Source of the DNA: Saccostrea cucullata
Lineage: Eukaryota
Direction: 5' to 3'
Length of the DNA: 64,000 nt
Assembly: GCF_032062105.1 (NCBI RefSeq)
Contig: NW_026937595.1
Location: forward strand, 1 to 64,000
This document shows positions 23,301-26,300 of this stretch, piece by piece. Position 1 is the first letter of the stretch; each line of letters starts with the position of its first letter. A program made the translations under genes and the position numbers. The notes beneath the pieces were generated by a model. The model ran no database searches. It was not told the origin of the DNA and saw only the letters and a program-made list of their open reading frames with translations.

Positions 23301-26300
23301 GCTTTGCTTATATTAATACATGTTAATTATTTTAATGTAATTTTACGAACAATTATTATCCTCCATAAAATAGGACTATTCAGAAGTAGAAATTTTTGAA
23401 ACCAAACTACATTTTATGTTATCTCAACATTTATAGGAAAAGTAATGTAAATTTCATGCACTCTATATACATGTACAAACCATCCGTATTTTTTTCCATT
23501 GTGACGTCACAGTCTACCGAAACAGCTTGATGATGCAACAGAAGAATAACAATCCACACAATTTATGGACGATTTTATTAATCATAAAACAATAATGTTA
23601 TTTACTGACTAAATCTTTAGTCAGAAAAACTTTAGAGGAAACGTAAATTGATTATATCTTGTATATAAGTACCATTGTTAAGCAAGTCCGCATATGTGCA
23701 AAACACTCCGCATTTCATTTTGTATATAGCAACGCCATCCGCATTTTTTGTATATATAGCAACGTCATCCGCATTTTTTACTTCAGTAGATAAATTTACA
23801 TGCTTGATTGTTCTGATGACGACCGTCACAGGTCGAAACCGGTCAACAAAATAAATGTACTGCTGCATTCTCACGAAGTGTTGGTGATCTGTTTTTTACT
23901 TTTAGTTTATTATCAACTTAGGTCAGTAGAACACTAGGTGATTTATGCATAAATATCTTAATATGCAAATAAGAAGGCAATGGTGTATACCGTAAATCTG
24001 GAAATTTTTACATCGATTTTATTTTGCGAATTCGGGTCAAAATGCTGTTGATAAATTTTTACGTTTCAAAATTTTGCGAATGACCACTGCTTTGTTTACA
24101 TTTTCTTATTGGTAATTTATTTTTAAGAAAAATATTTTTGCGAATGCAATGAACTCGCAAATTTGCTAAAAATTATCTACAGCAAAAATTTCCAGATTTA
24201 CGGTATATTAAAGTACATAAAGAAACCCTCATAAAGTTTAGTTTACATGTATCATGTATAAAATCAAATTTTGATAATCCGAAACACTGTTGAAGTAGCA
24301 GAGAGTGCTAGATGTTTTGTTAGTTGACTAACCTTTGAGTCCCAGTCCTTGTTGAGGTAATAAATACAGGTGATGGCTCGGCCATCTTTGTTTGGATTAT
24401 CCACGTGACGGAGGTATCCGGAGGAAGGACCCGGATAACAGGCCACCATAGCCTGCAAACAAAAAACAAGAGGCCCACGGGCCTTATAGGTCACCTGAGT
24501 ATCATGCATCAACTTTCTAACCATTGAATGTGCTTTATGCCATGGCACTAACATTTTGAAAGGGGCACAATTGCTCATCATAACTGTACACTCAACATGC
24601 ATAGTTCAGTTACTCAATACTCATAGGCAGAGTAGGGGTACACAAAAAAAGAATATAAATGCTTGGTAGTGTAAAGAAAAGGAACAGTGCCTTTCCCCTA
24701 TTAATCTTTTACTTCACCCAATGAAGGGAAACAAGTTTTGCAAAGAGTACGTGGACTGGACTCACAAATTCAAATTTTTATAATGAACCTTGGGCGAGCA
24801 TTAATGTCTTAGGTACTTATTCTAATCTTTAAATACAAAGTGCTAACTAGATTAATGCTTTTTTTTTTGGGGGGGGGGGGGGGGGGTTGTTAATAAACAT
24901 CCCTCTGAAGATTTTTTTACTCATATGGAGAGGTCACCCCTTGCCAGTAGGAGGCTGCAAATTTATACCAAATACTTGGCACAAGCACCATTTAGCATTG
25001 AGGGATCTTTTTCATGCCTACACCTACTTCGACACAGGACCCAAGTTTTTAGGTCTCATCCATGTCCTGCAGTGGATTCAAACCTGTGACGTAAGGATCA
25101 GCTCTTTACTCCGCAACTCTTATAAAGAGCAGACGTACGCTCTAACCACTGCACCATGCAGCCATTTAAATTATTGAATACTAATAGAACAAAAAATATG
25201 GTATGTAAATAGGGTGAGACAAAGAAATACACAAAATATTTATAATTATACATAATTTATTAAGCTTACATTTACTCAACATATTATGATGTACATGTAT
25301 GCATTTATAAGGTAACCATAACATCTGTTTGGAAAGGGTAATGATAAATTATATTAACAGCTAAAATAAAAGAGCATATCGATACATTTCCTTATTTTAT
25401 AATAAATAGTACAATGATTTAATACTTGACCTCAATATTTGCACAATAGTCAGTTAAATGATAAAGAAATGTTTAATGACTACGTATTGCATTCAATCAT
25501 TAAGATGTGTCCAATTAAGTATCCTGAAGAAATCAATGGTATGATTTTAATTACATTGTTCAATTTTTTTTTCAATGATTGCTCAACAACTGTCTGAAAT
25601 TCCGTCATGAATTAATTGTACAATGTACAAAGCACTTTTCACTTTTTATCTAATAATACCATCTGAAAGAAGCAAGGTTTACCTCCCTTTACGGGCTGGC
25701 CATTGACCTGTTCTTTCCATTATACTTACCTTGAAAGTGTATGCTTTATGTTATAGGTAATTTCAGACAGTTAAAACATTAAATAGATTTCATGAAATCT
25801 TGAAATCATTTTTCTTAATTCAAATTTCAGTTCCCATTATTGATATTCATAGAATATGTTTTGGTGCATGCATGTGTTAATGCACGTACTTGAATTGGAC
25901 CACTTAGCAATATGTGTACATAATTTATATAAGTAAATAATTGAACCATAAAATTATTCTAATCTTTATAAAATATTGTTAAAAATATCATGAACAAACA
26001 AATGCTATACATGGAAAGTACACAAACATACAAAGTAAATTCTGTTACAATAGCATTTTTAAAAAAATGTGCCCTCAAAAAAAAAAAAAAAAAAAAAAAT
26101 GAAGATTACATAAAAATTTGCTGAATCCATTAAGCACTTTCATTAAGAATCTTATATCAAATATTTATATCACAAAAACTTATAACTTTAATATGCTATT
26201 TCATAATAGATGTATTTGAACTACTTTTTTAATCTTACATACCGAAATTGAAAAGAAAGATTAAAAGTAGTTCAAAGTCACCTGGATACATTTATCCAGA

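Follow-up and report, generated by a model that had tools for sequence, protein, structure and literature searches.

A minimal type I hammerhead in the pLTR of an ORF1-only, non-autonomous Penelope-like element of Saccostrea cucullata, and genomic copy ends that probably record its cleavage

Non-autonomous derivatives of Penelope-like elements (PLEs) and retrozymes are already known. The minimal hammerheads of PLEs described by Cervera and De la Pena (PMC4209133) share with the motif analysed here the type I topology, an extra base between positions 9 and 10.1, a G10.1-C11.1 pair, a palindromic 15.2-16.2 (helix III), a helix I of 4-5 bp, location in the pLTR and a proposed dimeric form. Helix II, which is longer than usual in that class and comprises 7-8 bp in the Schistosoma families, has 4 bp here, or 5 when pairing of the extra C with G12 is counted. 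Even as dimers, minimal hammerheads are poor at cutting, and that study holds no evidence for cleavage in vivo, whereas copy ends mark the predicted cut site in the present genome. Poseidon PAc of Anolis (Frangieh et al. 2024, PMC11167929), according to the accessible parts of the paper, likewise starts RT at two internal sites, which define an optional 3′ extension, uses mainly uncut RNA as template and has a predicted long helical N-terminal region. Its RT start zones are 30-40 nt apart (~105-110 nt here), its N-terminal domain is not a separate ORF as it is here, and those parts report no cut-site reads, whereas genomic copies end at the cut site here.

Two related families, A and B, are described below. 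Canonical endonuclease-bearing (EN+) PLEs have one ORF in the available text of Craig et al. (2021, PMC8557442), whereas family B has overlapping ORF1 and ORF2 and a C2H2 ORF3. EN-lacking PLEs possess an ORF1. The Fundulus (killifish) Neptune has an upstream ORF1 as in family B; in the portion of that report available (PMC12602865) it is non-overlapping, derived from a consensus and given no homolog, whereas that of family B overlaps ORF2. Animal non-LTR retrozymes, in the passages seen of PMC7229834, resemble family A in being non-autonomous, PLE-derived and arranged as tandem units with type I hammerheads, but they are non-coding and 170-400 nt long, and those in the accessible text of Li et al. 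(2026, 10.64898/2026.07.22.740005) measure 51-972 bp, in contrast to the 1572-bp coding unit of family A. HAL1 (half-L1; PMC5753468, in part) is also a non-autonomous derivative that retains only ORF1; it derives from L1, whereas family A derives from a PLE and has a hammerhead-bearing pLTR. Family A thus behaves like HAL1 within the PLE class, yet is not a HAL1. Hammerhead function in endonuclease-bearing PLEs is described as unclear in the excerpted Craig et al. preprint. In the literature outside subscription journals, Repbase, Dfam, Arkhipova 2006/2017 and supplements, no cut-site footprint in PLE copies was found to be reported; within the same scope, reports were likewise lacking for a selected, ORF1-only derivative of an EN+ PLE and for a PLE N-terminal domain split off as an overlapping ORF.

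The window analysed is a 64,000-nucleotide stretch of the S. cucullata genome. The parts of its hammerhead are as follows, and relative coordinates in the text take the C of CUGAUGA as 0, which places the predicted cut between +31 and +32.

23808..23849, plus strand: minimal type I hammerhead, with the cut predicted between C23844 and A23845
23808-12 (TTGTT) and 23845-49 (AACAA), plus strand: stem I, 5 bp
23813-23819, plus strand: hammerhead core CTGATGA
23820, plus strand: extra C between A9 and G10.1, C in 75/75 aligned copies
23821-24 (GACC) and 23831-34 (GGTC), plus strand: stem II, 4 bp, with a loop of 6 nt
23835-38, plus strand: core GAAA
23838..23843, plus strand: palindrome ACCGGT (RNA ACCGGU) in place of stem III, modelled as a likely dimer helix
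23844, plus strand: C17, the C of GTC
23850-55, plus strand: AATAAA directly after the hammerhead

The type I core (CUGANGA, GAAA, UH) is present and stems I and II are paired. The sequence-only reading had listed a core, paired stems I and II, a stem III reduced to ACCGGU and an adjoining AATAAA at 23808-23849, all of which were seen again, and the core, stems, palindrome and pLTR location agree with its assignment to the minimal type I hammerheads of the PLE kind. The motif by itself is ordinary. A descriptor scan of both strands of the 64 kb gave this single match, and 100 Markov-simulated windows gave a mean of 0.07 loose matches per window and an equally strict match in 0/100. Genome-wide, the pattern has 74 exact and 88 relaxed matches, many of them in tandem arrays, and the reversed-pattern controls have none; chance origin of the motif is ruled out by the simulated windows together with the genomic copy count against these controls. 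The remark that only one copy could be seen therefore holds for the window and not for the genome. The partner in trans that was thought to be possibly required for activity is unneeded at the family level, because in tandem arrays another hammerhead lies on the same strand at a distance of 1.57 kb. A search with hammerhead models, proposed earlier as a check, gave no match in Rfam at gathering or E-value thresholds. The unconstrained fold of an 81-nt segment was no better than those of shuffled sequences (z -0.52), so folding energy neither supports nor opposes the hammerhead.

Conservation of the core among copies, on which the earlier claim depended, was observed: the non-majority rate in 75 aligned copies was 1.1% in the core, the lowest of the regions compared; stems I and II had 2.2-2.7%, loop II 7.3%, the 5′ flank 13.5% and the 3′ flank 6.5%, with a bias toward intact cores because most loci came from hammerhead-containing queries. 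The catalytic bases are all retained in families A and B, and the two families have in common the 3 bp of stem I that adjoin the core, which are the pairs retained by family B. AATAAA is also conserved among copies. Its role as a poly(A) signal is not supported, because copies end 35-50 or ~150-170 nt past it and no poly(A) tail was seen at the junctions inspected.

The monomer lacks an intramolecular stem III: its computed helix III pairing probability is 0.0, and this helix can form only between two copies. A strand-swapped dimer was computed at -20.5 kcal/mol against -10.8 kcal/mol for two monomers, a gain of ~10 kcal/mol. The extra C is predicted to pair with the catalytic G12 (23835) in the monomer with a probability of 0.95-0.98 in three short constructs and 0.48 in a 101-nt construct. 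The same position is A in 16/16 related PLE hammerheads (C in family A), whose palindromes vary in a scan that required a palindrome, and C there is detrimental in a viroid hammerhead, as stated in the accessible part of PMC3705267. From the monomer without helix III, the pairing of the extra C with G12, the viroid result and the A of related PLEs, the ribozyme is judged to be probably weak and dependent on either a second copy or a protein. One metagenome PLE (L210:1996) shares with the window motif the palindrome ACCGGT and the stem II GACC/GGTC, but its extra base is A. Some short arms on G000 contigs C17886, C17983, C13693, C1610 and C20703 also have A there; on C17886, C17983 and C1610 the partner arm of the A-carrying arm has C.

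The hammerhead lies in a solo copy of family A, whose features in the window are listed here.

22396..22410, plus strand: left target-site duplication, 15 bp; its end is briefly repeated after it, at the 5′ junction
22416..23910, plus strand: solo family A copy, 1.5 kb, without upstream hammerhead and start site
22525..23175, plus strand: intact ORF1 of 216 aa, homologous to the N-terminal domain of single-ORF PLEs
23686..23910, plus strand: pLTR region, comprising 30-bp repeats, the hammerhead and the short-class 3′ end (+98), with an approximate left boundary
23906..23920, plus strand: right target-site duplication, the first bases of which overlap the element end by microhomology

This copy starts at +161 of what would be the preceding unit and ends at +98, and thus contains one hammerhead and no upstream start site. 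The family A unit is 1572 bp long and occurs solo, truncated, inverted and as tandem arrays of up to five hammerheads, one array having units 99.8-100% identical. Family A has no RT or endonuclease, the only trace of an RT being a decayed 94-bp remnant, and codes one intact protein, the 216-aa ORF1. PLE hallmarks were found in both families (5′ truncation, partial tandems, inversions, two 3′-end classes with an optional 3′ extension), and target duplications or flanking repeats of 9-15 bp were found at 15/20 short insertions examined. Family A resembles non-LTR retrozymes in its tandem units, each with a type I hammerhead, and in lacking an RT, but its unit of 1572 bp with a selected ORF differs from the non-coding units of a few hundred nucleotides that define them. 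Family A is a non-autonomous, protein-coding PLE derivative, and of the two carriers named by the sequence-only reading, the PLE was borne out and the retrozyme was not. Within the pLTR, the 30-bp repeats at 23686-23790 contain TCCGCA and ACGTCA blocks, are also found in family B and, lying upstream of the likely start, are candidate promoter elements.

ORF1 matched a profile of 30-31 fused PLE N-terminal domains with E=1e-15, and on sequence grounds it is a PLE N-terminal domain present as a separate gene. Among 206 ORF1 relatives, nearly all of the 150 listed are short proteins, and a word-seeded search gave no longer homolog. No assignment was obtained from Pfam, PDB sequence, Atlas or Foldseek searches. 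The ORF1 structure model is all-helical and confident for residues 71-210 (the helical model covers residues 78-214), with no significant fold match in Foldseek; a single-sequence model was poor.

Selection was examined in 59 family A copies from 33 contigs, counting as shared a substitution in at least 3 contigs and deriving the expectation from the non-coding middle of the family A unit. In residues 76-200, shared nonsynonymous changes numbered 11 against 34.3 expected (0.32), and synonymous changes 11 against 12.3 (0.90; P=0.015). Shared stops in ORF1 numbered 0 against 5.6 expected, and no shared indel was called in the 624 coding nt, compared with 12 calls in the 523 non-coding nt, where the alignment split one event into several calls in some cases. 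Residues 1-75 showed no significant nonsynonymous deficit. Private changes likewise show a nonsynonymous deficit, and the contrast between shared and private changes is not significant (Fisher P=0.19). These substitution patterns indicate that ORF1 is kept under purifying selection in the RT-less family A.

A genome search with the ORF1 protein identified family B, whose ORF1 is ~80% identical to that of family A and which has the same hammerhead core and a different loop II; its pLTR is ~82% identical to that of the window copy. The divergence of the two families is old (dS ~1.3-1.5), with an ORF1 dN/dS of 0.07-0.14. ORF2 of family B contains RVT_1 (E 6e-11 to 1e-10) together with a GIY-YIG domain at its C-terminus (above the cut-off in L057, just below it in L058), joined by a CX2-5CxxC linker as in the Neptune/Nematis definition given in the available text of PMC8557442. 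At L058, direct and inverted terminal copies flank the RT-EN ORF, which puts the hammerhead in a pLTR. Family B does not have a single ORF: in 5/5 copies at 4 loci ORF1 and ORF2 are split, ORF1 stopping ~20 nt past the ATG of ORF2, which lies in the +1 frame, and a 3-nt deletion in three copies leaves both frames open. Four RNA runs gave next to no coverage of the family B body, so the ORF1/ORF2 junction has no read support there. ORF3, ~150 aa long and bearing C2H2 zinc fingers, comes after the RT-EN ORF (L057:1694-2194, minus strand, and other copies) and is still recognisable in diverged relatives at ~53% identity. No RT at 95% to 43% identity to family B was found among 86 scored of 5744 candidates, so family A may yet have an autonomous partner of its own. 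Family B is likely the helper that supplies RT and endonuclease to family A, as judged from these sequence relationships.

A third, abundant PLE family in the genome has a single ORF with the N-terminal domain fused to the RT. It is represented by L051 and L117-L121, with ~80 RT matches ~42% identical to family B, open frames of up to 947 aa and a hammerhead-like motif of its own that differs in sequence. In a FastTree of 97 RT cores built without named clade references, family B falls in a group of 47 (support 0.96), 44/47 of which have a short N-terminus, although gene-calling truncation may add to these. Among 80 metagenome loci the domain was found in 32 (13 fused, 14 split and 5 unassigned); in five of the split loci the ORFs overlap in the +1 frame as in family B, and broken copies may account for some of the other splits. 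The short-N-terminus group and the split metagenome loci together indicate that the ORF split is not local to this genome. The ORF1-only family under selection and its split-ORF sister show that the PLE N-terminal domain can exist as a gene in its own right, worth retaining even where the RT is gone, and that its function can be tested separately.

To tally the 5′ ends of copies, anchors were placed downstream of the cut, because loci picked via the hammerhead could hardly show starts at +32; identical junctions were collapsed, and chance microhomology was included in the simulations. With anchor 1, 5 of the 24 ends in +1..+58 among 100 of 119 matches lie at +32 (expected from simulation: 0.029; P=5.5e-4). 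With anchor 2, the figure is 8 of the 25 ends in +1..+38 among 100 of 138 matches (P=5.9e-6) or, counted by locus among the matches listed, 7 of 23 (P=3.3e-5). The two anchor sets overlap; among the matches listed, 33 anchor-2 arms lie outside set 1, 17 of them ending in +1..+38 and 5/17 at +32, two of these five sharing one locus and one partnering a locus already counted. The peak is one base wide (8 ends at +32 and 1 at +31 with anchor 2, among the matches listed), and BLAST extends one +32 copy to +29. The corresponding base in the window, 23845 (plus strand), is the 5′ end of 11 arms at 9 other loci among 160 arms examined, a union that includes loci from a search aimed at +32. That search gave 12 matches, 3 of which are point or deletion variants, and serves for examples only, outside the P values. 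Both arms start at +32 in three head-to-head insertions, and a fourth is +28/+32. A search allowing two mismatches gave 206 matches and 4 in controls; ends were drawn from exact matches, leaving ~90 older copies out. Most copies read through the predicted cut site. The cut coordinate behind the +32 statistic had been named by the sequence-only reading before the ends were analysed. The +32 pile-up likely records ribozyme cutting in living cells.

A second 5′-end peak lies at -3/-2, with 13/22 and 11/23 of the ends within -60..0 (P<1e-11), and head-to-head pairs starting there also occur. It corresponds to one further feature of the window.

23810..23811, plus strand: likely transcription start, in the 5′ strand of stem I, placed from the ends of other copies

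At 7/10 of the -3 ends the preceding base is a non-templated-looking G where the template has T, although one G can derive from an inverted arm. We take this G to be a cap signature and the context of -3 to be initiator-like; position -3 is likely a capped transcription start. Internal pLTR promoters are known for Penelope, according to the text seen of PMC2377424. The 3′ ends fall into two classes, ~+90 to +104 and +198 to +211, as expected from two internal RT start sites of the kind described in the available text of PMC11167929.

At the RNA level, read ends did not accumulate in the raw data of one run from related animals (depth ~40 over the motif), and the predicted cut site is crossed by contigs from several runs. 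One contig of run X3 ends exactly at 23844, which was not repeated in three other RNA studies; contigs cannot reveal RNA ends.

Our main reading, to which we give a probability of roughly 75%, is that the motif is the pLTR hammerhead of an ORF1-only, non-autonomous PLE and likely self-cleaves after C23844 in a minority of transcripts, probably as an ACCGGU dimer. Transcription would begin 2-3 nt before CUGAUGA, leaving the 5′ hammerhead with a stem I of only 3 bp. The RT and endonuclease of family B would copy family A RNA in trans from two internal start zones, ~+95 and ~+205, and copying would run to the 5′ end of the RNA, that is, to the capped start if uncut and to +32 if cut. With the extra C, so short a stem I and no helix III, a lone copy would be nearly inactive, so that cleavage would be conditional on a second hammerhead copy or a protein. 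Cleavage at +32 would leave the ORF1 message without its cap, and cutting twice would free an RNA one unit long. Such a weak, conditional ribozyme fits a footprint in less than a tenth of the arms. The family-level statistic points to in vivo cutting at an exact base, a start inside the ribozyme and two RT start zones, and the copy-end statistics provide exact coordinates for 5′-end mapping and in vitro tests.

It is possible, though on balance improbable, that the monomer itself cuts with protein assistance, ORF1 or ORF2 folding the ribozyme and the palindrome being secondary. The Anolis PLE hammerhead was cut only with the protein of the element added (PMC11167929, in the part available), and selection on ORF1 in an RT-less family points the same way. 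Against this stand a helix III that cannot close in the monomer, the computed preference for the swapped dimer and the different palindromes of related PLE hammerheads, the latter from a scan that demanded a palindrome. Protein assistance is compatible with the dimer model.

We consider it unlikely that family A replicates like a retrozyme, with double cleavage releasing a 1572-nt monomer that is circularised and reverse transcribed by rolling circle into arrays. Arrays of up to five hammerheads, including the one of nearly identical units, would be explained, the footprint indicates that cut RNA can serve as a template, and circles are known for small animal retrozymes (text seen of PMC7229834). 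However, the copies that begin at +32 are short and derive from linear cut ends, most templates appear uncut, and read-through multimeric transcripts could also make arrays; in sequence data the circle junction is identical to an array junction. A broader and more doubtful proposal is that of a coding 'half-Penelope' that starts in stem I, undergoes dimer-triggered decapping and yields a 1.57-kb coding circle copied by the three-ORF sister, with ORF1 retained for an action in cis on the RNA that encodes it, perhaps as chaperone of the ribozyme. If true, family A would stand between PLEs and retrozymes as a coding form, and its cleavage in vivo would be recorded in the genome.

That the +32 ends are instead RT stops at a folded, uncut core or dimer helix, the motif being structural and not catalytic in vivo, is decidedly improbable. 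A stop one base 3′ of C17 would yield the same coordinate, Anolis hammerhead mutants insert unimpaired in vitro (PMC11167929, accessible part), and the RNA reads lack cut ends. However, a stop at helix III would give +31 and one at stem I ~+37, whereas the peak is at +32 and one base wide; no comparable pile-up marks the GC-rich stem II, which the RT passes, and both families retain all the catalytic bases. Cleavage after C23844 is preferred as the source of the +32 ends.

The family A copy of the window resides in a host gene.

19941..24331, minus strand: EGLN intron hosting the element, from the splice joint in 4/4 RNA runs and exon translations

In 4/4 RNA runs the EGLN exons at 24332-24454 and 19809-19940 (minus strand) are spliced across the element, so the motif is intronic and antisense, which confirms the orientation relative to EGLN given by the sequence-only reading. 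Co-option of the copy as a regulator of EGLN, such as through antisense transcription that reaches the adjacent exon, is very improbable: the likely start at 23810 does face an EGLN exon ~520 bp away on the opposite strand, but the copy is an ordinary one, 93-95% identical to the nearest full-length family A copies and with a clean target duplication, and no read-through is evident in the RNA runs (from other animals). The solo antisense copy is most likely a dead-end insertion without a role in EGLN.

Other repeats occur in and around this gene. At 23986-24207 lies a MITE-like element whose 24-bp terminal inverted repeats are perfect and whose read depth is very high. The probable first intron of EGLN contains an uninterrupted Helitron-type ORF of 2402 aa (28356-35564, minus strand) with Helitron_like_N, PIF1 helicase, DUF6570 and Herpes_teg_N domains, a weak endonuclease match, and internal 114-bp and 30-bp repeats. 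The window further contains arrays of ~166-bp repeats (4628-5391, 15463-16292, 42175-42643, 46187-46548 and 56034-57152), arrays of ~146-bp repeats (35801-36817, 39227-39671 and 50680-51157) and a 34-bp minisatellite (59748-60252).
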